Positions 1,673-15,740 of a stretch of 24,000 bases of DNA are shown one piece after another (within the stretch, counting starts at the first letter, position 1; every line of letters begins with the position of its first letter). The DNA is taken from assembly GCA_035341665.1 (NCBI GenBank), contig DAOQVR010000001.1:483275-507274 (forward strand), read 5' to 3'. Source of the DNA: Anaerolineae bacterium (GTDB lineage Bacteria; Chloroflexota; Anaerolineae; JAAYZQ01). The notes beneath the pieces were generated by a model. It did no database searches. It was not told the origin of the DNA and saw nothing but the letters and a program-made list of their open reading frames with translations. A program made the position numbers and the translations under genes.

Positions 1673-3184
1673 CTAGCCCGCAGATCGTGATCGTGCGTAG
1701 GCAGCCAACACACGTTCCCGTGCCCAGCCATGGTCGACGACGGGAAACGGGTAATCGTGCCCGACACGGCACCCTATCGCTGCCTGTAGGTCAGTGGGCA
1801 TCTCCCAAGGTGCGTGGAGGTAGCGCAATGGCACGTGGGCGAGCTCGGGAACCCAACTTCTCACGTACACGCCCTCGGGATCGTGCTTGCGGCCCTGGAG
1901 GATGGGATTGAAGATGCGGAAGTAGGGGGTAGCGTCGGTGCCTGTGCCAGCTGACCACTGCCAGCCGCCGTTGTTGGAGGATGGGTCAGCGTCGAGCAGG
2001 TGCTGCATGAACCATCGCTCACCCCAGCGCCAGTCGATGAGCAGGTCTTTCACCAGGAACGAGGCGACGATCATCCGTGCCCGGTTGTGCATCCAGCCCG
2101 TTTGCCAGAGCTGGCGCATCGCGGCGTCCACGATCGGATACCCTGTCTGTCCCGCGCACCAGGCTTCGAAGGCCGCCTCGTCATTCTCCCACGCAATGGC
2201 CTGGAGGTCGCGGCGAAAGCTGTGATCCGCCGTCTCGGGAAAGTGAGCCTGGATCGAGATGTAGAACTCGCGCCACACAAGCTCATTGAGCCAGGTATCC
2301 GCTCCATGGCGGTCCTGTTCGTCCGGCGCGTCGTCGGCCTTGCGCAGGGCGCCGACGATCACCTGCCTGGCGGAGAGCATTCCAAAGCGCAGGTAGGGTG
2401 ACAGCTGCGAGGTGCCCTCCATGTCCGGACGATCGCGGTTCTCGGCGTAGTGGTAGATGCCCAGGTCGTGGTCCGCCAGGAAGATGCCCAGCCGTCGCTG
2501 CGCCTCGGCTTCTCCGGGCACGAACAACGCATTGGGAGGAAGCTCGCGCTCGGCGTGCAGTGGCAGGCTCGCGACCTGCTGGGGAACGGGGGGCACCGAA
2601 GGCGGCTCTAGCAGGCCGCCAGGGACCGGCAGCGGACGGCTTTTCCAGGCGCGGAGGAAGGGCGTGAACACCGTGTAGGGAGTCCCATCGGCCTTGAGCA
2701 CTGCGTCGGGCGGGTGGACCGTCAGGCCCGCGACCAGGTGCAGGCGCAAAGCCGTGGCGACAGCGGCATCGCGGGACCGGGCGTAGGGCCACGGGTCTTC
2801 CTCGGCGAAGACAGCCGTGGCCCCGGTTTCACTTGCCAGCTTGGCGAGCTCCTCGGTTGGATTTCCCTGTAGGATGACGAGGCGGCTTCCTCGAGCGCGC
2901 AATTCGGCATCAAGAAGCCGCAGCCCACCAAACAAGAACGCGACACGCCTCCATGCGGCATCTCCTACCTGCTCGGACTTTAGGATCGTTGGATCCAGCA
3001 CGAAGACGGGGATGAGCTGATCGGCTGCTGCGATGGCCGCGTGCAGTGCTTGATTGTCGGCCAATCTCAAGTCGCGTCGGATCCACCAGATCGCAGTAGT
3101 CACTGGTGCATGCTCTGAGCTACCCGGTGTCCCATCTCGGGGAGGATGGCGTGTGCCAATCTGCCGGTGGCCTGCGCTACGCAA
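1673..3184 (-). CDS. phr: Deoxyribodipyrimidine photolyase, class I CPD type (FAD)
   Basis: The C-terminal half reads [85 protein letters not shown], almost colinear with E. coli Phr. The N-terminus [16 protein letters not shown] is the photolyase alpha/beta domain. ATG 3184 overlaps the upstream gene by 8 nt. GTG 3103, just before [11 protein letters not shown], is an alternative start. Confidence 0.9.
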
Positions 3185-4103
3185 CGGCTTCGCGTAGTGC
3201 TGGTTCGATCTCCGGGAAACGGAACTGGAATCCTTGCTCCAGGAGCCGCTTCGGCACAGCCTGCTGGCCTGTCAGGAGAAGATCGGCCACCTCACCGAAC
3301 GCAGCCCGCATGACGGCGCCGGGCAGGGGAAGCCATGAGGGTCGGTGTAGAACGCGGCCAAGCGCGCGCGAGAGCTCGGCATTCGTCACTGCCCGCGGCG
3401 CAGCAAGGTTGTACGCGCCTGAGGCAGCCGGGTTGTCGATGAGGAACAGGATGGCTCGCGCCTCGTCCTCGAGCTGAATCCAGGAAAGCCACTGCCGGCC
3501 GTTGCCAATGGGCCCGCCTGCGTAGAACCGGTGCTGGAGTAGCATCGGCCGGAGTGCTCCGCCTGTCTTGCTGAGCACGACGCCCGTGCGGATCACGGCG
3601 CGCCGGACGCCCAGTGCTTCAACCGGTGCGGTGGACGGTTCCCACTCTCTCGCGGCAAAGGCAGCCAGGAAGTCTTGGCCGGGGCTGCTGTCTTCTGTGA
3701 CGGGGTCGTCGGCGTGAGGGCCGTAGAAACCCACTCCGGAGGCCTGGATAACCACGCCAGGCTTCTGACTCGCCCGCTCGGTTGCTTCCACCACGGCCCG
3801 CCCCGCGTCCAGCCGGCTTTCGCGGATGAGCCGCTTCCTTGCAGCATTCCAGCGACTGGGGAGCAGCCCGTCCCCCGAGATGTTGGCACCGGCCAAGTTG
3901 ACGATGGCACCGGCCCCATCGGCCAGGTGCGCCCAGCCGTCGGCGGTGCGACCATCCCACTTCTCGGCACGGACCTCGCCTGCCAGCCCCGTTACTGCCT
4001 CGGGACGTCGGCTGAGCAGAACCACGTCGCGACCCGCAGCTGACAAGTGCGCCGAGAGCGCCCGTCCGATGAGCCCAGTCCCACCGGTGATGATCACTCG
4101 CAT
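3177..4103 (-). CDS. yfcH: YfcH-like NAD-binding epimerase family protein (SDR fold with a DUF1731-type C-terminus)
   Basis: Starts [16 protein letters not shown] (Rossmann GxxGxxG) and ends in [22 protein letters not shown] chose ATG 4103 because AGGAGG lies 7 nt upstream. The 25 extra codons in the ORF track (to 4178) lack homology. Confidence 0.8.
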
Positions 4104-4150
4104 GTTCTTACCTCCTGGCATGTGTCCTGCAGATGCGGCCGGTGCGCAGC

Positions 4151-5452
4151 CTAGCGGCCGATGCATCCACGCAGCCAATCGAGCGCCAACCCACCTTGTT
4201 GGTCGAGGTGTTTCTCAGCCGCGTGCAGATAGGCGAGGACCAGACCGGAGAACCTCGCCGAGGCGATCTCTGGCATGCCCAGTTCCTCCGTCAGGTCCCC
4301 GCACTCAAGGAGCGAGACGGCTCCAAGGGCCAGCGCGGCCTCGAGATGCTGGGAGACCTCGGTGCAGAAGCTGGTTGCCTGCGAGCGTCCAAGTCCGAGA
4401 GACGCCGAACTCCCGATAACCTCGGCCTCGATGGACAACCGGCGCTCCTGGAAGCGCACCCGTGCTACCCGAGCCTCCTCAGGAGTCGGCTCTGGGGTTG
4501 GAGCAACCCTCGAGCCGGAGAGCAGCGCATCCGCCGTGCGCAGGGCGTAGTCTATCCTCTCTCCGAGGAAGAACCCAGGAACCCTGTCGCGCAGCTTTGG
4601 ATGGCGGTTGAACACACCGCCCGCGAACGCGAAGGGAGCCAGGCCCTGAATCGTCTCGGCTCCCTCGACCAGAGTGGCGGCAGAGGGCAGGCGCTGCGCT
4701 GCCATGATGATCAGGCCGGGCCGTACGATGCTGACCGCTGTGTCCAACTGCTCCACTGGGACATCGGCACCCAGGTAGACCACGGGCCAGCCAAGGTGGC
4801 GCAGCAAGTAGGTCAACAACAGGAGCCCGAAAGTGTGGTGTTCGCCAGGCGGGCAGGCTGCCAAGACACGGTTGGCGCGGTTGGCAGGTGGACACGCCAC
4901 CAGCAACGCCTCCAATCGTCCGACGGCCAGCTCCGAGACAAAGTGCTCCTGCTGAACGGAGACCTCTCCCTGCCTCCAGAGTTCGCCCACCTCGCGCACC
5001 GCCCACTGGAGCATATCGAGGCACACGACATCGGGTCGGTAGAGGGCAAAGGCTTGTGCGGCAGCCTGGTCAGCTTTCCTCCGGTCGTACCTGAGGCAGG
5101 CAGCAAGCCACTGCTCGCGCATCGCCTCGAGAGTAGTGCCTGACGCGGGTGAATCGATGGCAGGACCGGCGGGCGAGACCCTCGCCCCTACAACCTCCAG
5201 AGGGTTGTGACCCTCAGCCTCGACTTGACGAAAGAGGGCGACGGCTCGGGCGATCGTCATGCCCTCGTGCTGCCGGGCCTCGAGCCAACGGAGAACATCG
5301 ATGTCGCGCTGCGTATAGAGCCGTTGGCCGCCGGCACTGCGGGTGGGGCAGGGTAGCCCGTATCGCCGCTCCCAGGCCCTCAGTGTGTCTGGTTTGAGGC
5401 CTGTCTGCAGGGCGACGGCTTTCAGGTTGAAGAGCGGGGCCTCTTCTGCCAC
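4151..5452 (-). CDS. carH: MerR-family, cobalamin-binding light-sensing transcriptional regulator (CarH/LitR type) with an extra ~120-aa C-terminal domain
   Basis: MerR HTH: LFNLKAVALQTGLKPDTLRAWERRYGLPCPTRSAGGQRLYTQRDI. A Wx9EH motif is present (WRQGEVSVQQEH). The B12 Rossmann motif GEHHTFG (ExHxxG) is followed by VVYLGADVP. The start is set at GTG 5452, 19 nt after the DUF1295 stop and preceded by GAGAGGAAAGG. The track's ATG 5575 would overlap the upstream gene by 104 nt. Confidence 0.8.
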   Translation of the reverse strand: MAEEAPLFNLKAVALQTGLKPDTLRAWERRYGLPCPTRSAGGQRLYTQRDIDVLRWLEARQHEGMTIARAVALFRQVEAEGHNPLEVVGARVSPAGPAIDSPASGTTLEAMREQWLAACLRYDRRKADQAAAQAFALYRPDVVCLDMLQWAVREVGELWRQGEVSVQQEHFVSELAVGRLEALLVACPPANRANRVLAACPPGEHHTFGLLLLTYLLRHLGWPVVYLGADVPVEQLDTAVSIVRPGLIIMAAQRLPSAATLVEGAETIQGLAPFAFAGGVFNRHPKLRDRVPGFFLGERIDYALRTADALLSGSRVAPTPEPTPEEARVARVRFQERRLSIEAEVIGSSASLGLGRSQATSFCTEVSQHLEAALALGAVSLLECGDLTEELGMPEIASARFSGLVLAYLHAAEKHLDQQGGLALDWLRGCIGR

Positions 5453-5471
5453 GCTAGCTGGCCCTTTCCTC

Positions 5472-6260
5472 TCAGCGCCGCTTCCTGGGAAACCAGGGGA
5501 TGAAGGCGCTGGTGCTCTGAACGTACTCGCGGTAGGCTGGCTTGGTGGTCGCGAGTGTCTTCTCGAGGAGGGCAACTCCCGAGACTCGCAGCAATAGGGC
5601 GGTCATGAGGATCGGGCTGAAGATGGTCCAAAAGCCACCGGCTGCCGAAGCGAAGAGATAGTAGGCCCACCACTGAGCCGAGTCGCCAAAGTAGTTGGGG
5701 TGACGGGTGTAGCGCCAGACGCCCCCGTCCAGGACTCGGCCCTTGTTGGCGGGGTTTGCTCGAAAGCGCGCAAGCTGAAGGTCGCCCACTGACTCGAAGA
5801 AGAACCCGATTGCCCAAAGGGGCAGGGCGATCCAGTCGAGGATCGTCAGGCGAGCTGCTTGGGACCCAATCTGGGCGGCGAGGAGCGGGGCTGAGATGAT
5901 CCACAGCAAGAGACCCTGCAACACGAACACCTTGAAGAAGCTCTTCCACCACCACTGAGAGCCTTCCTCCTCGCGCCACTTGCGGTAGCGAAAGTCCTCG
6001 CCCTTGCCCCAGTTTCGCCAAAGAAGATAGGCCGAGAGACGCAATCCCCATATCGTGACGAGAACCGCGACGAGCCACTTCCGCGCCGGGAACCCATCTG
6101 GTGTCAGGGCGAAGTAGAGCCAGTTCACGATGACAAAGCCTGTTCCCCAGAAGGGATCGACGATGCTCGAGTTTCGCAGGAGGAGACTGAGCACCCAGAG
6201 CAGGGCCATGAGGCCCATCACAACACCCAGACCTGTGAGATACACCTCGACAAAGCTCAC
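5472..6260 (-). CDS. DUF1295 family polytopic membrane protein (steroid 5-alpha-reductase / ICMT-like fold)
   Basis: Multi-TM ORF containing GLRLSAYLLWRNWGKGEDFRYRKWRE and RYTRHPNYFGDSAQWW, both characteristic of DUF1295. The GTG start overlaps the DegV stop (GTGA at 6257-6260). GGAGG lies upstream. Confidence 0.8.
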   Translation of the reverse strand: MSFVEVYLTGLGVVMGLMALLWVLSLLLRNSSIVDPFWGTGFVIVNWLYFALTPDGFPARKWLVAVLVTIWGLRLSAYLLWRNWGKGEDFRYRKWREEEGSQWWWKSFFKVFVLQGLLLWIISAPLLAAQIGSQAARLTILDWIALPLWAIGFFFESVGDLQLARFRANPANKGRVLDGGVWRYTRHPNYFGDSAQWWAYYLFASAAGGFWTIFSPILMTALLLRVSGVALLEKTLATTKPAYREYVQSTSAFIPWFPRKRR

Positions 6261-7135
6261 TTCACTGCCTCCATCTGATCGCTCCCCGGCGCTTGCCCTT
6301 TGGCTTCCACGACGACAAAGCCGGCAGCTCCCGGGCCGATGTGCGTCCCGATGACTGGTGTTACTTCCGCGACGAGCGGCTGCCCGCCGTTGGGAAAGAG
6401 GTGGGACGCCTCGCGCCAGTACGAGTCGAGCCTTTCGGGTGCGTGGGTGTGTACCAGCGCAAGTTGCTCAAACGGCGCGAGTCCGGAGATCATTTCCACT
6501 ACACGCGTCCTGGCGCCGCCGCGGGTGCGAGCACGTTCCATGCGGAATTCTCCGCCGTTCATTGTCAGGATGGGCTTGACCTGGAGTATGGCCCCCAGGC
6601 TGGATTGCAGGCGGCTGAGCCGCCCACTGCGCCGCAAGTACTCCAGTGTATCGAGCGCGGCGATACAGTGGGTGCGGGAAGCCTGGTCCTCGAGTGCTGC
6701 GAGGATCTCTGCGCGGGACCGGCCCGCAGCGGCTTGCTTGGCCGCTGTCAGGGCGAGCAGGCCTATGCCAAGTGTGAGGTTGCCCGAGTCGAACACGGTG
6801 ACCCGCACGCTGCGCATTTCTTGCGCAGCCAGGCGTGCCACGCCGACCATGGCGCTGAGCGCGCTGCCGATGTGGATCGAGATGATCTCTGTTGCTCCCG
6901 TATTGGCAAGCTCCTCGTAGACCTTTACGAACTGGCCGGGTCCAGGGACAGAGGTGGTGGGGTGCGCCCCGAAACTGGGGAGACCCTCGTAGAACTGCTC
7001 ATGGGTCATCTCGACTCCATCGAGATAGCTCTGTTGACCGATGTTGATGTATAGGGGGACTATCGTAATCCCATGAATGGAGGCCAGCTCCGCTGGCAGG
7101 TCGCAACTGGAGTCGGTCACAATTCGGATCGACAC
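6257..7135 (-). CDS. DegV family fatty-acid-binding protein (FakB-like)
   Basis: IRIVTDSSCDLP near the N-terminus, and the protein is DegV-like throughout. The start is set at GTG 7135, with AAAGAGGA 6 nt upstream. The 46 upstream codons in the track (to 7273) would overlap the heliorhodopsin gene. Confidence 0.85.
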   Translation of the reverse strand: MSIRIVTDSSCDLPAELASIHGITIVPLYINIGQQSYLDGVEMTHEQFYEGLPSFGAHPTTSVPGPGQFVKVYEELANTGATEIISIHIGSALSAMVGVARLAAQEMRSVRVTVFDSGNLTLGIGLLALTAAKQAAAGRSRAEILAALEDQASRTHCIAALDTLEYLRRSGRLSRLQSSLGAILQVKPILTMNGGEFRMERARTRGGARTRVVEMISGLAPFEQLALVHTHAPERLDSYWREASHLFPNGGQPLVAEVTPVIGTHIGPGAAGFVVVEAKGQAPGSDQMEAVK

Positions 7136-7182
7136 GCTATCCTCTTTCTGCCCGGGTTCCCGGTGCTCTGCGCGAACCTTCG

Positions 7183-7205
7183 CCTCGCCAGACGTCCTGG
7201 CGAGG
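7183..7205 (-). other. Perfect 9-bp stem-loop (CCTCGCCAG-5 nt-CTGGCGAGG) between the heliorhodopsin and degV genes
   Basis: The inverted repeat is visible at 7183-7191 and 7197-7205. No U-tract follows on the minus strand, so it is not a canonical intrinsic terminator. Confidence 0.3.
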
Positions 7206-7239
7206 GGAAAGGCGCAATCGCCGGTCAGGGATGTCGCCG

Positions 7240-8082
7240 CTAGGGCGCCAGCACGCCGGCAAAGACCTGCCAAGCCAGGAGAGTCTTGGCTACAAGGCTA
7301 AGGACGATGTACATGCGCTCGCCGAAGAGGTAGTCCTTCCACGGACCCACCTTCTTGTACTGCAGGTACATGTTCACGGCAAAGATGTTAAAGAAGACGA
7401 AGAGACTGGCGACGATCCCGTAGACAAAGTCGGGCGGCCCGCTGTTCGGCGTCGAGGCGGAGGCGATCGACCAGACAAAGTACACGACAATCACGATCCA
7501 TGGGACGATCCCGGCGAAGCAGCCATAGATGAACGAGGTCCAGTCTGTCTTCTTTGTGGTCTGATTGTGGAGCTCCATCAGCACGCCGAAGAGGTTCATG
7601 CTGGCATTCACGCCGAACATCGCGATCAGAGCACCCAGGTCTGACACGCCGGTGAGTAGTCCGATCAGCACAATCATGATGGAGGAGCTAAAGGCATACT
7701 CGTAGAATCTCGCGGGGTTCATGCCCTTTTTGAGGTGGGCCACATACCACTTGTAGCCAAACGAGGCGAGGCTGAAGTGGGCAATGGCTGAAATGAGCAG
7801 AAAGGCGCCCACTGCCGGGCCAAAGGCGAGCGAAAACGCATCCTTGAGAGTGGGCACCAGCTTCTGGGCAGCCGCGTCAAAGTTGAGAACGGTTACCGTG
7901 ACCCCATAGGTCTTGAGGTCGCCCAACACGAAGCTGAGAACGACCATCAGGACACCCTGCACCAGGTGTAGGAAGCCCATGATCAAGTTGAAGCGGCGCA
8001 GGCCCTGATACGTCTTCTCTGGAACGTCGGGAGCATTGGAGGCAACGGCGGCTTTCTTCGCGGCGACGGGTTTCTTTGTCAT
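7240..8082 (-). CDS. Heliorhodopsin (7-TM retinal protein with inverted topology)
   Basis: Colinear with heliorhodopsin 48C12 as I recall it. Matching blocks are FGVNASMNLFG, GCFAGIVPW, DFVYGIVASLFVFFNIFA and GERMYIVLSLVAKTLLAWQVFAG, the last carrying the Schiff-base Lys. The counterion Glu context FYEYAFSSSIM and both conserved His (GFLHLVQ, SAIAHF) are present. The basic N-terminus fits an N-in topology. AAGGAGAG precedes ATG 8082. Confidence 0.9.
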   Translation of the reverse strand: MTKKPVAAKKAAVASNAPDVPEKTYQGLRRFNLIMGFLHLVQGVLMVVLSFVLGDLKTYGVTVTVLNFDAAAQKLVPTLKDAFSLAFGPAVGAFLLISAIAHFSLASFGYKWYVAHLKKGMNPARFYEYAFSSSIMIVLIGLLTGVSDLGALIAMFGVNASMNLFGVLMELHNQTTKKTDWTSFIYGCFAGIVPWIVIVVYFVWSIASASTPNSGPPDFVYGIVASLFVFFNIFAVNMYLQYKKVGPWKDYLFGERMYIVLSLVAKTLLAWQVFAGVLAP

Positions 8083-8161
8083 TTCTCTCTCCTTAGGCTA
8101 TGTTCGGTTGGTGACCCCGTTGGGGCATTCAGGTGCTCTTGAGCTCTGCAAACTGAGCGCC

Positions 8162-8190
8162 ATTTTAGCACGCCGCCCAACTGTTGTCAA
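8162..8190 (-). promoter_or_regulatory. Near-consensus sigma70-type promoter facing the heliorhodopsin gene (TTGACA-N17-TAAAAT)
   Basis: On the minus strand, the -35 TTGACA is the reverse complement of 8185-8190 and the -10 TAAAAT is the reverse complement of 8162-8167, with a 17-nt spacer. This predicts a 5' UTR of about 70 nt to ATG 8082. Confidence 0.55.
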
Positions 8191-8257
8191 GGTATTGTGC
8201 GGAGTTCTTACGACTTTCTAATGCCCATGTTCGGTCGAATGGGGTGCCTGCCGCGAC

Positions 8258-9286
8258 TTGAGCTCCTCTACGTTGTGTGCTATGATTGCGACCGTGAGAG
8301 CTCTCAAGTGCGTGCTGATCCCGCTGCTGTCCATAGTGCTGGCCTTCGTCGTGGTGCCTCTGGTCATACCTGTGCCTCCGCTGGAGAGGACTGTCCCTGC
8401 CGAGGAGTTGGCGGACCCGGACAGCCGTTTCGTCGAGGTGAATGGCCTCCAGGTGCACTACAAGGTGCAGGGGGCGGGGGCTCCGGCTCTTGTGCTGCTC
8501 CACGGATTCGGAGCCAGTACCTTCTCTTTCGAAGCAGTGATGCCCTCGCTCGCCGAGCTCGGCACAACCATTGCTTTTGACCGGCCGGCATTTGGCCTTA
8601 CGGAGAGGCCGACCGTGGCCGAGTGGGGCGATCAGAACCCGTACACGATCGAAGCACAATCCGACCTGACTGTTGAGCTCCTGGAACGGCTGGGCTTGAC
8701 GGAGGCCGTGTTGGTGGGCCACTCTGCTGGCGGCTCCGTCGCCGTCGTGACTGCACTTCGCCATCCCGAAAGGGTGAAAGCCTTGGTCCTGGTGGGCGCA
8801 GCGGTCTACGAAGGTGGCACTCCTGGTTGGCTGGGCCCTCTGCTGCGAACCCCTCAGATGCGGCGGTTGGGCCCACTCATTGCACGCCGGTTCGCGCGGA
8901 CCGGGAGCGAGTTGCTCGTCCGCGCCTGGCACGACCCTTCGCGAATTTCGCCCGCGACGGCGGAGGGGTACGAGAAGCCTCTGCGGGCCCAAGGCTGGGA
9001 CAATGCGCTATGGGAGCTTGTCATGGCCAGTCAACCCCTGGAACTGGCAGACCGGCTTCGTGAGGTGCGCGTGCCCGTCCTTGTGCTCACGGGTGACTCT
9101 GACCGGATTGTGCCACCTGAGCAGAGTGCTCGCCTGGCAGCCGAGCTTGCCAATGCAAAACTGGTGACCATTGCGGACTGCGGGCACTTGCCCCAGGAAG
9201 AGCAACCAGAGGTATTCCTGGAGGCAGTTGCGGCGTTTCTGAAAGAACTTGGATTCCCAATCGCTACTGGAGGGACAGAACCATGA
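8258..9286 (+). CDS. Membrane-anchored alpha/beta-fold hydrolase
   Basis: N-terminal TM helix (ALKCVLIPLLSIVLAFVVVPLVIPV), oxyanion HGFGAS, nucleophile elbow GHSAGG, and GDSDRIV and CGHLPQEE for the acid and His. The track start at 8258 is TTG. ATG 8282 is an alternative. Confidence 0.85.
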   Translation: MSSSTLCAMIATVRALKCVLIPLLSIVLAFVVVPLVIPVPPLERTVPAEELADPDSRFVEVNGLQVHYKVQGAGAPALVLLHGFGASTFSFEAVMPSLAELGTTIAFDRPAFGLTERPTVAEWGDQNPYTIEAQSDLTVELLERLGLTEAVLVGHSAGGSVAVVTALRHPERVKALVLVGAAVYEGGTPGWLGPLLRTPQMRRLGPLIARRFARTGSELLVRAWHDPSRISPATAEGYEKPLRAQGWDNALWELVMASQPLELADRLREVRVPVLVLTGDSDRIVPPEQSARLAAELANAKLVTIADCGHLPQEEQPEVFLEAVAAFLKELGFPIATGGTEP

Positions 9287-11657: not shown

Positions 11658-12302
11658 TCAAACATGATTTCGCAGCATCAGTTCCATGGGATACGGATTC
11701 AGATAGACCTGCTGCCACACCCACTCCGGCACGGAGTGCCGCCGCAGGTGATGCCTGAGAAGCGTAAGCGGCACGATCAGCGGCACCAGCTCGCTGCGGT
11801 AGTCCTCGATTAGGCCTAGTAGCTCTCGCTTGTCGTCGGCCGAGAGGTTCTTCTTGAGGTAGCCCATGAGGTGCTGGAGGACGTTGACGTGCTTGCGGCG
11901 GGTGCCCAGGAGCGCCAGGCCTTCCATGAAGAGCCGGCCGTACGTGGACGAGAGTTCCTCCCACGGGATGGTCCCCGCATTGGCCACCAGCCGGCCCAAT
12001 TGCGTGTAGTGCTTGGAGCTGTGGGCCATGAGGGTGAGCTTGTGCGCGGTGTGAAAGCGGACCAGCCCGCCGGGCGTCGGGTCGGACTTCGAGAGCTCGG
12101 TCCAGCGGTAGTAGGCAAAGATGCGCTCGACAAAGTTCTCGCGCAGCGGCAGGTCGTTCAGGCGCCCCTCCTCCTCCAACGGCAGGATCGGGAAGCGGTC
12201 GCGGGCGGCGCGGGCAAAGAGGCCGCTGCCGGTACGATCGGCCATGCCGTGCTGGTTGTAGACTTTGACCCGGAATAGCCCGGACGAAGGGGAATCCTTC
12301 TT
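11658..12302 (-). pseudogene. 5'-truncated paralogous copy (about 214 codons) of the YbgA-like gene at 14648-15673
   Basis: Colinear with the last ~214 codons of 14648-15673 at roughly 85-90% aa identity by eye. It lacks the N-terminal DUF523 part that carries the Cys residues. Homology stops abruptly at 12302. The ORF continues to a GTG at 12467 through 55 unrelated codons. ATG 12245 could yield a standalone DUF1722-like protein. Confidence 0.7.
12238..12302. repeat. 65-bp stretch identical to 15228-15292, at the truncation breakpoint of the ybgA-like fragment
   Basis: TCGGCCATGCCGTGCTGGTTGTAGACTTTGACCCGGAATAGCCCGGACGAAGGGGAATCCTTCTT is identical at both sites. The flanking homologous DNA differs at roughly 1 position in 7. 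Confidence 0.8.
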
Positions 12303-12459
12303 ATAAGAGTGGGCGCAATAGACACAACGGCTTGGCCCTGGCTGCGAGGATCTGCATTCAGAAACCGAACAATGGCGGGCGGGACGACTGGGCGCACGGC
12401 TATCCCCGGCCGCCCTACGACACGGCAACGTACTCCGTAGATGAATAGGACCTATTGTC

Positions 12460-13224
12460 CTACTCACTGGCCAATCCCATCAAGACGGGAACAAACGCAT
12501 CATTGAGCCGCCTGTAGCCCGCTGCAGTGAGGTGTAGCAGGTCCCGACTGAACTCGGATCGTGTGCTCCCAACGCCATTTGCCAGGATCGAGTAGGCATC
12601 CAAGATCAGGATGTCGTCTCCGCCGAGAGAGCGGATGAACGCACTGACTTCCTCGATAGCCACAGCGACGTCATCCGACCAATACAGCCTACGGTCCAGA
12701 GGCACTGGCCCAGTCGGAAAGATGGTGGTCAGAATTACCTTTGCTCCCGAGCCAGTGGCCTTTTCGGCGATCTGCCGAGTGTTCTCTTTGCAGTTGGCGA
12801 CGATAGCCTCTTTCTGATCAGGGAGAACAGGAATGGCCTTCAGATCGTTGATACCCACCTGAACTACGACCACATCAGGCATCAGTGGTTTGACGTGATA
12901 ATCGAAACGCAGGAGAGCTTGAGCAGAAGTCTCTGCGTAGATGCCACGATTGACGAACTCAAATTGATCTAGATCAGGTGGAGTCCAATCTGCCGCTCTG
13001 GAGTCACCAAAGAAAACCACCGTTTGCAGGCCGGGTCTGGCAAGATCTCGTTGATCGGGTGCGGTGCTGTAGTGGCTCAGCCCCAGGGGATCCAGCCGAG
13101 ATCCGTTCAGTTGCAGGTAGTACTGCATGCTCTGGTTGAAGAGTAAGTAGTTCAGCGAAATGGACCCTAGCAAGACGACTGTGAGTGCGGCAACCGCAAG
13201 TATGACTCGACGATCTGGTTTCAT
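12460..13224 (-). CDS. SGNH/GDSL-family hydrolase with an N-terminal signal anchor
   Basis: N-terminal TM helix (VILAVAALTVVLLGSISL). Block I FFGDSRA, block III VQVGINDL and block V DLLHLT (DxxH). Looks lower in GC than the flanks by eye. Confidence 0.8.
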   Translation of the reverse strand: MKPDRRVILAVAALTVVLLGSISLNYLLFNQSMQYYLQLNGSRLDPLGLSHYSTAPDQRDLARPGLQTVVFFGDSRAADWTPPDLDQFEFVNRGIYAETSAQALLRFDYHVKPLMPDVVVVQVGINDLKAIPVLPDQKEAIVANCKENTRQIAEKATGSGAKVILTTIFPTGPVPLDRRLYWSDDVAVAIEEVSAFIRSLGGDDILILDAYSILANGVGSTRSEFSRDLLHLTAAGYRRLNDAFVPVLMGLASE

Positions 13225-13315
13225 CTTTCATCAACCCGTTGAGTATTGCCATCTGCAGCGCAAGAACTGGCTATCTAGAAGTGCGATCGAAGAAGCTTCT
13301 CAAAGGCGCTCGCTC

Positions 13316-13528
13316 CTACACGTGATTCCTCAACATCAACTCCTTGAGGCAGGGGTTCAGATAGACCTGCTGCCACACCCACGCCGGTACCGGATTGCGC
13401 CGCAGGTGATGCTTCAGCAGCGTCAGTGGCACCACCAGCGGCACCAGCCCGTGCCGGTAAGCCTCGATCAGCCCCAATAGCTCCTGCTTGCCCTCGGCCG
13501 ATAGGTCTTTCTTCAGGTAGCCCAACAG
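13316..13528 (-). pseudogene. Short 3'-terminal fragment (about 70 codons) of a YbgA-like gene
   Basis: Encodes LLGYLKKDLSAEGKQELLGLIEAYRHGLVPLVVPLTLLKHHLRRNPVPAWVWQQVYLNPCLKELMLRNHV. This is about 80% identical to the C-terminus of 14648-15673 and ends at the equivalent stop codon. Upstream of 13528 the ORF (to 13750) has no homology and overlaps the 13539-13886 gene. Confidence 0.7.
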
Positions 13529-13538
13529 GGGGAGCGCC

Positions 13539-14018
13539 CTACTTGTGGCGATAGACGTCCATCGCGTTCCGCATTTCGAGATTCGGAGTGCCCAACTTGC
13601 CAAGGAGCTCGGCGAATTCGTCGTAAGAGAGATCCTCATGCACAGCGTTCGACTCAACCACAATGACAAACCACGTAGGGTTCGAGGCATCTGGCTTGGC
13701 AAAGATCGCGTCCTTGTCTGGGTAGCGTTCGCCAATGATGTACTTGTCATCCCAGCCTATCTTGACAACGCTGCCCTCGATCACTGTATGATTGCATGTT
13801 GCCTTGGGATCGTCGTAGCATGCGTGTTGTGCTCCATAGAGCCGCAGGCCACTCAGGATTGGCCGTCCGAGGGAGTATCCGCCCACGACTGCGATTGGCG
13901 TTTTCTCAACGTATACCGGGACGAGTTCAGCCGCAGGGCCTCAACAGGCCGATACAGTGATCAGGAGCAGAAACAATGCGAAGATCCGGGGACCTACTTT
14001 GCAGTTCAACAGCTGCAC
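13539..14018 (-). pseudogene. Small lipoprotein gene interrupted by an in-frame TGA directly after the lipobox Cys. The mature part resembles DUF3997-type small proteins (family call uncertain).
   Basis: GTG 14018 is preceded by TAAGGAGG, where the hicB stop is embedded in the SD. It encodes VQLLNCKVGPRIFALFLLLITVSAC, then TGA (13943-13941), then continues in the same frame into the 115-aa track ORF 13539-13886 (GGYSLGRPIL...IGWDDKYIIGERYPD...TWFVIVVESN). Confidence 0.55.
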
Positions 14019-14028
14019 CGTGGCCTCC

Positions 14029-14358
14029 TTACGACTGGCTCAGCTTTGCGCTCACGATCCGATTCAAGCTTACGCCACTTTCGGCAGCTTCCAGCGCCAG
14101 TTGACGATGGACTTCCGGTGGGATCCGTACCATGAACTTGCCGCTGTATTGTCGGATCGCGATTGGCTCGGGAACAGCTTCACCACTGGCCTCGAGATCA
14201 GCAACGACCTCAGCCACCACCCGACGAATCCCCTCAAGAGCCTTTTCTGGAGAAGAGGCCAGCCAACTGAGGCTGGCAAACTCGGCGCACAGGCCGACAT
14301 ACTCTCCATCTTCCTCGGACCACATCACGCGGTAGCCGTATCGATCATTCTTCAGCAT
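14029..14358 (-). CDS. hicB: HicB-family antitoxin
   Basis: 109 aa. The N-terminal HicB fold region is YRVMWSEEDGEYVGLCAEF..SWLASSPEKALEGI. The C-terminal RHH-like DNA-binding tail is FMVRIPPEVHRQLALEAAESGVSLNRIVSAKL. Overlaps hicA by 14 nt. Confidence 0.8.
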   Translation of the reverse strand: MLKNDRYGYRVMWSEEDGEYVGLCAEFASLSWLASSPEKALEGIRRVVAEVVADLEASGEAVPEPIAIRQYSGKFMVRIPPEVHRQLALEAAESGVSLNRIVSAKLSQS

Positions 14359-14605
14359 TGCCCTCTACCTTCAGGCGGTCAATCGCCTTCAGCACTTGCC
14401 TCACCTGGTATGTTTTTGCCATCCCCTCATGATCTTGGATATTGACTCGCGGATCTCCCTGCCAGGGTGTTTTGTAGATGCGGTGACTGCTCCCCTTGTA
14501 GCGCGCCTCACCAAAGTAGAAAGCGCAGACCCTGCAAAGATCTGCAAAACGCACCCCCTTGGGGTTGTGCCGCATCCTGGCGACCAGGTCGTCCACCTTG
14601 CTCAC
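14345..14605 (-). CDS. hicA: HicA-family mRNA-interferase toxin
   Basis: 86 aa with GSSHRIYK (HicA GSH motif). It is upstream of hicB, the usual order. GTG start. Confidence 0.8.
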   Translation of the reverse strand: MSKVDDLVARMRHNPKGVRFADLCRVCAFYFGEARYKGSSHRIYKTPWQGDPRVNIQDHEGMAKTYQVRQVLKAIDRLKVEGNAEE

Positions 14606-14613
14606 GAGAGCAA

Positions 14614-14631
14614 GGTACCACTATTGGTACC
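14614..14631. promoter_or_regulatory. Palindrome GGTACC-ACTATT-GGTACC just upstream of hicA (candidate HicB operator)
   Basis: Seen between the ybgA-like stop (14648) and the hicA GTG (14605). A TTGACA hexamer (reverse complement of 14635-14640) lies just upstream on the minus strand. Confidence 0.3.
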
Positions 14632-14647
14632 GTTTGTCAAGTGTGCC

Positions 14648-15673
14648 CTACACATGATTCCGCAGCATCAACTCCTTCGGATACGGGTTGAGGTACACCT
14701 GCTGCCAGAGCCACTCCGGCACCGCATGCCGCCGCAGGTGGTGCTTGAGGAGCGTTAGCGGCACGATCAGCGGCACTAGCTCCTGCCGGTAGTCCTCGAT
14801 CAGGCCAAGCAGCTCTCGCTTGTCCTCGGCCGATAGGTCCCTCTTCAGGTAGCCCATCAGGTGCTGCAGTACGTTCACGTGCTTGCGCCGGGTGCCCAGA
14901 AGCGCCAACCCCTCCATGAAGAGCCGGCCGTAGGTGGCTGACAGCTCGGCCCACGAGACCGTCCCCGCTCGGGCCACCAGCCGGCCCATCTCGGTGTAGT
15001 GCTTGGGGCTGTGGGCCATGAGAGTCAGCTTGTGCGCTGTGTGGAACCGCACCAATCCGCCGGGGGTCGGGTCGGTCCTGAGCAGCTCGGTCCAGCGGTA
15101 GTAGGCAAAGATCCGCTCGATGAAATTCTCGCGGAGGGGCAGGTCGTTCAGGCGGCCTTCCTCCTCCAGCGGGAGCAGTGGGAATCGGTCGCGGACGGCG
15201 CGGGCAAAGAGGCCGCTTCCCGTGCGCTCGGCCATGCCGTGCTGGTTGTAGACTTTGACCCGGAATAGCCCGGACGAAGGGGAATCCTTCTTGAACACGA
15301 AGCCACTGAGCTCGCGGGCCGCCAGCCCATCGAGGCGGCTCCTGGCCCACGCCTTCATGCGCTCCGTGTTGTCGGCGCCCGACTTCTGCGCGACCAGACG
15401 CGGGGAGTCGGGATCTCCCACGAGTCGCATGCTTTCCCTGGGAATGCCCAGCCCGATCTCAACCTCTGGGCAGACAGGCTCCCACTCTACGAACTTCCCT
15501 AGCACGTCCACCAGGAAGTGATCGAGCTTATGGCCACCATCGTAGCGCACTCTCTCACCCAGGAGACACGAGCTTATCCCCAGGCGGAGTTTCGGCGCCG
15601 GCGACCCAGCCTGCAGATCATCTCTCATCCAAGTTGCCCCCCCGAGCCCAACCTGAACCAAGGTCTGTCTCAC
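14648..15673 (-). CDS. ybgA: YbgA-like protein: DUF523 (TudS-type 4Fe-4S thiouracil desulfidase family) fused to DUF1722
   Basis: The N-terminus LRLGISSCLLGERVRYDGGHK....PVCPEVEIGLGIPRE is DUF523. The C-terminal half (RIFAYYRW...FHTAHKLTLMAHS...HVNVLQHLMGYLK) is DUF1722. The track start at 15673 is GTG, with AGGAGG 13 nt upstream. ATG 15628 is an alternative. Confidence 0.85.
   Translation of the reverse strand: MRQTLVQVGLGGATWMRDDLQAGSPAPKLRLGISSCLLGERVRYDGGHKLDHFLVDVLGKFVEWEPVCPEVEIGLGIPRESMRLVGDPDSPRLVAQKSGADNTERMKAWARSRLDGLAARELSGFVFKKDSPSSGLFRVKVYNQHGMAERTGSGLFARAVRDRFPLLPLEEEGRLNDLPLRENFIERIFAYYRWTELLRTDPTPGGLVRFHTAHKLTLMAHSPKHYTEMGRLVARAGTVSWAELSATYGRLFMEGLALLGTRRKHVNVLQHLMGYLKRDLSAEDKRELLGLIEDYRQELVPLIVPLTLLKHHLRRHAVPEWLWQQVYLNPYPKELMLRNHV
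15228..15292. repeat. 65-bp stretch identical to 12238-12302
   Basis: Direct comparison of the two regions. The offset is 2990 bp. Confidence 0.8.
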
Positions 15674-15711: not shown

Positions 15712-15740
15712 ATTATCGCCCAGGATAGGGTTGCTGACAA
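15712..15740 (-). promoter_or_regulatory. Candidate promoter for the ybgA-like gene (TTGTCA-N17-GATAAT on the minus strand)
   Basis: The -10 is the reverse complement of 15712-15717 and the -35 is the reverse complement of 15735-15740, with a 17-nt spacer. Confidence 0.45.

Follow-up and report, generated by a model that had tools for sequence, protein, structure and literature searches.

Integrative and conjugative elements, integrative and mobilizable elements and cis-mobilizable elements (ICE, IME and CIME), like the tycheposons, insert site-specifically with regeneration of their target and accumulate in tandem, the ICE, IME and CIME at the 3′ ends of protein genes and the tycheposons at tRNA genes, with integrase-less units standing between attachment (att) repeats. 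These att repeats are tens of bp long, and an integrase-bearing member is regularly found. In Dehalococcoides, the ssrA islands are tandem units bounded by repeats of the target 3′ end with an element-derived motif just upstream of each; several units have no integration module and were read as cis-mobilizable or as fixed remnants (accretion), and sixteen of the islands carry a module with a CcrB-like serine recombinase beside attL (PMC3146451). Here we describe arrays of tandem units that lie behind the rudS gene in Anaerolineae, as represented in a 24,000-nt stretch of an Anaerolineae bacterium contig (the window). RudS is a fusion of TudS and DUF1722 that removes 4-thiouridine from tRNA and is typically encoded in light-responsive operons, and stand-alone DUF1722 proteins, e.g. 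E. coli YbgA, account for 21% of DUF1722 genes (PMC11417400).

The window contains a full-length rudS gene (copy A) followed in the same orientation by two partial copies of its 3′ end, a short one (copy B) and a long one (copy C), with small cassettes of other genes in between (Table 1). When the full gene is searched against the window by blastn, copies B and C are the only further matches. The stops of the three copies are homologous (...ELMLRNHV and stop; TAG, TAG and TGA), and in a three-way alignment the similarity ends there. An initial annotation made from the sequence alone had described the locus in this way, with a full gene, 213-nt and 645-nt copies of its 3′ end and a homologous stop, and both blastn and the alignment bear it out. 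The copies had also been described as diverged rather than identical, in agreement with their amino acid identities to the full gene of 80.0% for copy B, at a ratio of nonsynonymous to synonymous substitution rates (dN/dS) of 0.15, and 89.3% for copy C, in which the Pfam DUF1722 domain (PF08349) is matched over positions 1–117 of 117. The proposal that insertion occurred at the gene terminus holds only in part. The copies do end at the stop, but homology between the long copy and the gene begins, at the nucleotide level, with codon 128 (AAG AAG GAT...; position 15292 in the gene and 12302 in copy C), so the break is deep inside the open reading frame (ORF) and not at the gene terminus.

Arrays of the same type are present in at least 14 other Anaerolineae contigs, with up to 4–5 tails each. 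These were recognized by fetching loci around rudS relatives (contigs named L followed by a number) and scanning them with tblastn for rudS fragments. L175 has a full rudS and four intact tails, L176 has at least five tails, L173 has a full rudS with two intact tails and two remnants, and L097, from a 1-Mb long-read contig, has a full rudS and three tails; smaller or partial arrays are in L083, L004, L001, L174, L181, L194, L051/L177 and L077. Over all loci, the fragment matches start at residue 127 in 21 of 46 instances and end at residue 341, the stop, in 29 of 46. About half of the tails elsewhere are intact, and the remainder are frameshifted, truncated or reduced to remnants. The protein database contains dozens of DUF1722-only gene calls of 195–297 aa whose match to the long copy is as good as that of full genes, and 262 short ORFs match a query that bears the junction. 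A protein search with the junction peptide returned only short, truncated ORFs (44–135 aa).

The recurrence bears directly on whether the layout could be an assembly artefact, in which strain variants of rudS were collapsed or chimerically joined during metagenome assembly. The window does come from a short-read metagenome contig of 53 kb (ENA; k141_1076091, source sample ERZ27257434), and a divergence between copies of ~15% is typical of co-occurring related strains. However, the layout repeats in many independent assemblies and samples, including the long-read contig L097, each junction carries a specific conserved motif (see below), the cassettes are complete genes with their own signals, and the same contig is present in two samples. 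We regard an artefact as highly improbable.

A motif that is not part of rudS, roughly 25–65 nt long, adjoins the 5′ side of every long tail, whatever the upstream cassette. Its core, TTG(Y)G(Y)CCA(S)TCTTA(Y), lies immediately before AAR AAG GA, and weaker blocks (GGATTCG, GTCA) reach to about −65. A motif search finds a single copy in the window, where 0 are expected by chance. Among 21 junctions the core has a mean pairwise identity of 0.74 with six invariant columns, compared with 0.52 at third codon positions and 0.39 at fourfold sites in the 150 coding nucleotides next to it in these junctions, and the motif is therefore under a constraint of its own. An element-side att arm would sit where the motif sits, as it does in the Dehalococcoides ssrA islands (PMC3146451).

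Other identities for the motif were considered and set aside. Local alignments that would make it a diverged piece of rudS or the native upstream region of rudS did not beat shuffled controls; a protein-level ‘GFV’ similarity in some of the junction peptides is a hint in that direction. A sigma-70 promoter scan did not flag it and the spacing of candidate hexamers varies among variants; the scan did flag the native rudS promoter at 15740–15712. RNAalifold predicted no pairs in 16 junctions, and there was no match to an Rfam family.

Relatives without the insert place the left edge of the variable segment at the rudS stop. The rudS products of L165–L167 are 86% identical to that of the window, and by blastn these loci are collinear with it at ~83% nucleotide identity from 22931 down to the rudS stop at 14648, resuming at 9251. 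In them, rudS and an abhydrolase gene abut tail to tail, with the alignment resuming inside the 3′ end of the abhydrolase gene. The missing 5.4 kb has the rudS stop as its left edge and takes in DUF2177 and the MutS-like gene as well as the cassettes and the two tails. L001, a more distant relative, has hicB directly behind rudS, then other genes, and a decayed remnant of motif plus tail beside DUF2177. Together these layouts indicate that the space behind rudS is a variable region with the stop codon as its left edge. We note that the hicAB cassette in L001 is one in which hicA and its promoter are deleted.

The cargo of the arrays is mostly toxin–antitoxin genes (HicAB, MazEF, ParE/Phd, BrnTA, PIN, DUF433/DUF5615 and DUF4258), together with small unknown ORFs and an occasional ABC transporter, aldo-keto reductase or hydrolase. 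Strains that are 97% identical differ in the toxin–antitoxin module beside the same tail, showing that turnover is recent. One recurring component is a 142-aa ORF that is the last gene before the motif and tail in five contigs (L051 338–766, L175 13166–13594, L176 1342–1770, L177 5790–6218 and L178 768–1196); it is unmatched in Pfam, NCBIfam and PADLOC and is partnered with differing toxin–antitoxin modules. A second is a block of ~260 nt common to four junctions with differing upstream genes (L051 6250–6500, L175 9700–9950 and 13723–13970, and L174 15569–15815), in which a spacer separates the motif from what is left of the 3′ end of a HicB-like antitoxin gene. Its occurrence under differing upstream genes indicates that cassettes are also remodelled upstream of the motif.

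We suggest that the arrays grow when units with a rudS tail of their own recombine at the codon 127/128 boundary, probably through a recombinase acting in trans, and that the array is then reshuffled by homologous recombination, a reading that in our judgement has an even chance of being correct. A mobile unit would consist of a replacement for the 3′ part of rudS (645 nt, running from codon 128 through the stop), a cargo of one to a few genes and the junction motif. As a circle, the unit would recombine with the chromosomal gene at or beside the codon 127/128 boundary in a Campbell-type insertion. The gene would stay whole, with the unit supplying a new tail, and the earlier tail would be pushed downstream, where it would lie behind the motif of the unit; repeated rounds would produce the order gene, cassette, motif plus tail, cassette, motif plus tail. 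As no recombinase was found in any unit, we infer that the enzyme for the reaction would be encoded at another place in the genome. The 645-nt repeats would later undergo homologous recombination, gene conversion and deletion, yielding mosaic tails and short copies such as copy B, and the array would become enriched in toxin–antitoxin cassettes because the loss of such cassettes is penalised, as is expected in any array with long direct repeats. The same argument from toxin–antitoxin stabilisation has been made for chromosomal integrons. Repeated insertion at one site by units bringing their own 3′ part is also what the initial annotation had envisaged; the recurrence, the motif, the insert-free relative and the purifying selection on the tails all speak for it, but the recombinase was not found. 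A broader proposal, which we put forward tentatively and consider doubtful as it stands, is that the arrays form an integron-like gene-capture platform of uncultivated Anaerolineae, in which the rudS tail with its motif would be the site, insertion at codon 127/128 would be driven by an activity in trans or of the host, and arrays of toxin–antitoxin and defence or cargo cassettes would be exchanged among related lineages.

Several observations weigh against unit insertion at the codon 127/128 boundary. Neither a tyrosine nor a serine recombinase, nor any other integrase, was found in the window or in the 10-kb flanks of ~20 loci. The lack of an integrase in the window had been recognized at the outset. 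Scans of genome, metagenome and viral contigs gave no integrase-bearing element; the initial annotation had advised a search of the genome and metagenomes for cassettes linked to a recombinase and a ybgA 3′ end. No rudS relative or genuine copy of the motif was found in the viral contigs, where the matches are chance ones to unrelated low-GC contigs. Recombinase core sites usually show dyad symmetry, and there is none above shuffled controls around the junction or in the gene, and no conserved hairpin. Variation in the final 15 nt of the motif falls mainly on the third positions of codons in the rudS frame, hinting at a translated role. The tails of A, C, L166 and L001 are roughly equidistant (dS 0.58–0.96, with overlapping intervals), none of them standing out as native, and decay of the tails follows no gradient from proximal and young to distal and old. 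The empty site that had been predicted, in which the MutS-like gene would come straight after rudS, was not found; the L165–L167 site also lacks the MutS-like gene and DUF2177 and is not the exact product of cassette excision. Finally, cassette content also switches at internal points, e.g. at the border between a toxin–antitoxin module and the 142-aa ORF, for which ordinary homologous recombination is an explanation.

The history of the tails is informative in this regard. An ungapped comparison of A with C has 95 mismatches in 645 nt, of which 66 are at third codon positions (dN 0.061, dS 0.58, dN/dS 0.105), and this mostly synonymous divergence indicates that the tails diverged while coding for a working protein. 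The tail dS range of 0.58–0.96 falls within the background dS of neighbouring genes, as does an apparent 5′/3′ mosaic of rudS itself (segment-wise dS, A and C against two relatives). The tails are mosaic, with nearest relatives that differ among their 5′, middle and 3′ thirds, and identity matrices of tails against upstream and downstream cassettes are too flat or too mosaic for a call on linkage. In several arrays the 5′ edge of the repeat is occupied by a long stretch of complete identity between copies, which measures 65 nt for A and C, 41 nt for the full gene and fourth tail of L175, 114 nt for tails 2 and 3 of L175, and 44 nt for tails c and d of L097. The first of these (15228–15292) is only 84–88% identical to its orthologues, against 100% to copy C. 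Decayed tails are the expected fate of displaced copies.

Much of this could be accounted for by homologous recombination only, with one ancient partial duplication having made the motif and tail, and the 645-nt repeats then serving as portable homology for RecA-type crossovers and conversion within and between related genomes, by which cassettes would be added, exchanged and removed with no dedicated site-specific system. The mosaic tails fit such a history, the long exact tracts between copies resemble conversion or crossover tracts, the cassettes switch at internal homologous points (at the 142-aa ORF and at the hicB-like remnant), dyad symmetry is lacking at the junction, and a recombinase was found neither in the window nor at the loci examined. 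Inheritance and conversion, however, leave the constraint on the motif (0.74 against 0.39–0.52) unexplained, 21 junctions share their boundary to the nucleotide in spite of unrelated upstream cassettes, the identity tracts cluster at the 5′ edge, and the entry of new cargo is not accounted for. We consider homologous recombination a serious rival, though rather unlikely to be the whole explanation.

The position of the boundary within the protein is relevant to a further possibility, that the long tails are expressed short genes encoding stand-alone DUF1722 proteins with a motif-encoded N-terminal extension, the arrays being tandem paralogues among toxin–antitoxin genes. In the AlphaFold model of the full protein (mean predicted local distance difference test score, 75), residues 124–127 form a core strand of the TudS domain that is followed by the conserved KDSPSSG loop, and the helical DUF1722 part starts near residue 172. 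The codon 127/128 break therefore lies within the TudS fold, before the SPSSG loop, and not at a domain border; a product starting at residue 127/128 would carry ~45 orphan TudS residues, which argues against designed stand-alone proteins. Many tails are intact over 215 codons with a dN/dS of about 0.1, they hold the complete DUF1722 domain and stand-alone DUF1722 proteins do exist (PMC11417400), an ATG stands 27 nt upstream of some copies, and products of 224 aa are predicted by gene callers. Variation at the 3′ end of the motif also has a three-base periodicity in the rudS frame; in its last 18 nt, four of the five variable positions are at third codon positions (p about 0.02 by a hypergeometric estimate). 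However, the ATG at −27 is present in only ~4 of 22 junctions and three have an in-frame TGA in the motif, upstream of −15 the pattern of conservation is the opposite of coding, about half of the copies are frameshifted or truncated, and a low dN/dS would be expected just as much of tails that diverged within full genes. The co-orientation of the tails directly behind a full-length rudS is also left unexplained. Tandem paralogues with 5′ parts replaced by insertions were the alternative offered in the initial annotation, and intact tandem paralogues were not seen in any relative. We find expression as short genes improbable as the origin of the arrays.

In L083 the motif is followed directly by residues 315–341, and this derivative indicates that short tails can arise from long ones by internal deletion. 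Copy B, which has no motif, is better read as a long fragment whose 5′ part was deleted than as a sign of a second att position.

Four other candidates were rejected. A diversity-generating retroelement, in which mismatches are confined to adenines of the template copy, was discarded as there is no reverse transcriptase in the window and the 95 mismatches between A and C involve all bases, 66 of them at third positions. An integron attC or other structured site was set aside for want of conserved pairing in 16 junctions, an Rfam family or an intI integrase in the window; a long target-site duplication because the copies differ by 14–19%; and Xer/dif modules (integrative mobile elements exploiting Xer, IMEX, and pdif), which have a 28-bp site with two inverted 11-bp arms, because there is no dyad symmetry above shuffled controls. 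A stand-alone gene of the YbgA type fits only in part: copy C has a complete DUF1722 but no conserved start of its own or sensible domain boundary.

Table 1. Features of the rudS array in the window.
Feature	Coordinates	Strand	Evidence
Copy A, full-length rudS (TudS/DUF523 + DUF1722 fusion, annotated ybgA-like), 341 aa	14648..15673	-	Pfam PF04463 + PF08349
5′ edge of the repeated part in copy A, codon 128 onward	15228..15292	-	65-nt tract 100% identical to copy C start
Cassette 1 left end: TTGACA 7 nt past the rudS stop, then palindrome GGTACCAATAGTGGTACC; putative hicAB promoter/operator	14606..14647	-	
hicA-like toxin gene, 86 aa	14345..14605	-	Pfam HicA_toxin, weak (E 0.007); L175 has a homologous ORF of 86 aa upstream of its HicB
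hicB antitoxin gene, 109 aa	14029..14358	-	Pfam HicB, 3.9e-15
Putative DUF3997-like lipoprotein pseudogene, GTG start at 14018	13539..14018	-	Three-frame translation; weak Pfam DUF3997 match
Copy B, rudS residues 272-341 + stop, no junction motif	13316..13528	-	blastn 81.4% over 215 nt (13529-13315)
SGNH/GDSL hydrolase gene, cassette 2 cargo	12460..13224	-	Pfam Lipase_GDSL_2, 1.1e-16; GC 0.544, GC at third codon positions (GC3) 0.60
Junction motif directly upstream of copy C, core GTCTATTGCGCCCACTCTTAT (12303-12323), weaker conservation to about -65	12303..12367	-	
Copy C, rudS residues 128-341 + stop, frame intact, 645 nt	11658..12302	-	blastn 86.3% over 643 nt (12302-11662)
MutS-like ATPase gene, MutS domain V only, 626 aa	9727..11607	-	Pfam MutS_V; NCBIfam partial matches
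Segment missing from collinear relative L165/L166/L167	9252..14647	.	blastn collinearity, gene maps

The cassettes of the window differ in composition from their surroundings, with a GC content of 0.555 against 0.627 for the rest of the window, as the initial annotation had anticipated. Their GC3 is 0.60–0.67, and is 0.69–0.78 in the host genes and 0.83–0.86 in the three rudS copies. Pfam also supports the gene content given there (hicA-hicB, a lipoprotein gene, an SGNH hydrolase and the MutS-like gene), with weak matches for HicA and DUF3997. The hicB gene has 82% nucleotide identity to the segment directly behind rudS in L001, and it has homologues in L051, L175 and L177. The hicAB cassette begins with TTGACA and then a perfect palindrome, GGTACC-N6-GGTACC, and the same arrangement is behind fragment 3 of L175 (L175 12546–12586); from its sequence, the palindrome is probably a HicB operator. 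The lipoprotein gene encodes a signal peptide and lipobox and is interrupted, as had been reported, by an in-frame TGA (13943–13941) right behind the lipobox cysteine, with the frame otherwise intact downstream. The TGA reflects either a recent pseudogene or a sequencing error.

The MutS-like gene is missing from both L165–L167 and L001, each of which has conserved synteny, and when its product was used as a probe in a pattern scan no relatives were found in representative genomes. PADLOC matches the protein weakly to mad8. How the gene relates to the array is uncertain; an older insertion may have brought it in as a defence or cargo gene.

There are several departures from the simple array plan elsewhere. 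In L097 (10260–10378), the full-length rudS is split into two overlapping ORFs around codons 112–149, from either a frameshift due to assembly error or a real disruption. In L174 and L181 a full-length rudS was not seen within 7.8–10 kb upstream of the first tail; this points either to a first cassette of great length or to arrays that need not be joined to the gene. The only mobile-element genes seen at the loci, an insertion sequence transposase (rve) in L177 and a DDE_5 transposase with a group II intron reverse transcriptase in L195, are unrelated to the junctions. The pair in L195 (5275–7038; RVT_N, RVT_1, GIIM and HNH for the intron protein) is a few kb from a frameshifted tail and probably without connection to the junction there.

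The copy A protein is 100% identical to P0001 and has hundreds of homologues at 72–86% identity, the nearest of them from Anaerolineae metagenome bins; the homologues begin near M16 (about 15628). An alignment of RudS from this Anaerolineae clade has only two invariant cysteines, C36 and C68. The loop at 15292–15270 in the window (KKDSPSSG) reads SPSSG, and the corresponding SPSCG loop is presumably the carrier of the third Fe-S ligand in TudS. The junction peptides of the fragments bring cysteines just upstream of it (C-x-C-V-H-S-Y). In the window rudS has a light-response neighbourhood, which includes genes for a photolyase (1673–3184), an epimerase/DUF1731 protein (3177–4178) and a MerR-B12 regulator of the CarH/LitR type (about 4151–5575), with DUF1295, DegV and heliorhodopsin genes as further neighbours within 1673–8992. 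This neighbourhood matches RudS operons of other phyla (PMC11417400). That description of the family does not mention truncated tandem copies or rudS as an insertion site (PMC11417400).

Little is known of gene exchange in the Anaerolineae, which abound in sludge and sediments. The rudS locus is a recurrent, population-wide hotspot at which small cassettes pile up behind a conserved gene of the housekeeping type, and, if units do insert as we favour, an element-borne replacement of nearly two thirds of the coding sequence would keep rudS intact. Should a recombinase recognise the junction, the arrays would amount to a new system of attachment sites and possibly to a new platform for cassette arrays on a par with integrons; should none exist, they would show clearly, in nature, how long coding repeats can provide portable homology for the capture of cassettes. 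In both cases the motif, together with the codon-128 boundary, is a simple signature by which arrays can be sought in metagenomes, and a concrete substrate for recombination assays.

We found no literature report of rudS or ybgA as an insertion site or of such arrays, in keeping with the initial view that the gene is not a known att site. With the Dehalococcoides ssrA islands (PMC3146451), the rudS arrays have in common their occurrence in Chloroflexota, tandem units behind a single-copy gene, direct repeats of its 3′ end and a motif marking the insertion point. They differ in that the target there is a transfer-messenger RNA gene with a 20-bp repeat, whereas here a protein gene is cut at codon 127/128 and the repeat is 645 nt, or 63% of the ORF; a recombinase module is present in sixteen of the islands and none was found at the rudS arrays; and the rudS units are much smaller (0.3–5 kb) and mostly toxin–antitoxin pairs. 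Chromosomal integrons and clusters of attC sites lacking integron-integrases (CALINs) are similar in their long arrays, their small, mostly co-oriented and toxin–antitoxin-rich cassettes and their repeated separator, and CALIN arrays can lack a nearby integrase. However, the integron separator is a 60–140-nt attC hairpin used with intI, rather than a 645-nt gene tail with an unstructured motif and no intI found, and a rudS array is tied to a working gene, which has to be repaired at every insertion. In contrast to the ICE/IME/CIME and tycheposon arrays, the rudS units would replace hundreds of bp of diverged coding sequence, and an integrase-bearing member was not found. Of the features of accreted elements, an intact target with co-oriented 3′ repeats and a motif are present at the rudS arrays and a recombinase was not found in the window or the ~20 loci. 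The rudS arrays belong with the known accretion of integrase-less units at a regenerated target. They stand apart, in addition to a recombinase that is not visible, by a protein gene cut at codon 127/128, a proposed replacement tail of 645 nt and an integron-like array rich in toxin–antitoxin genes.

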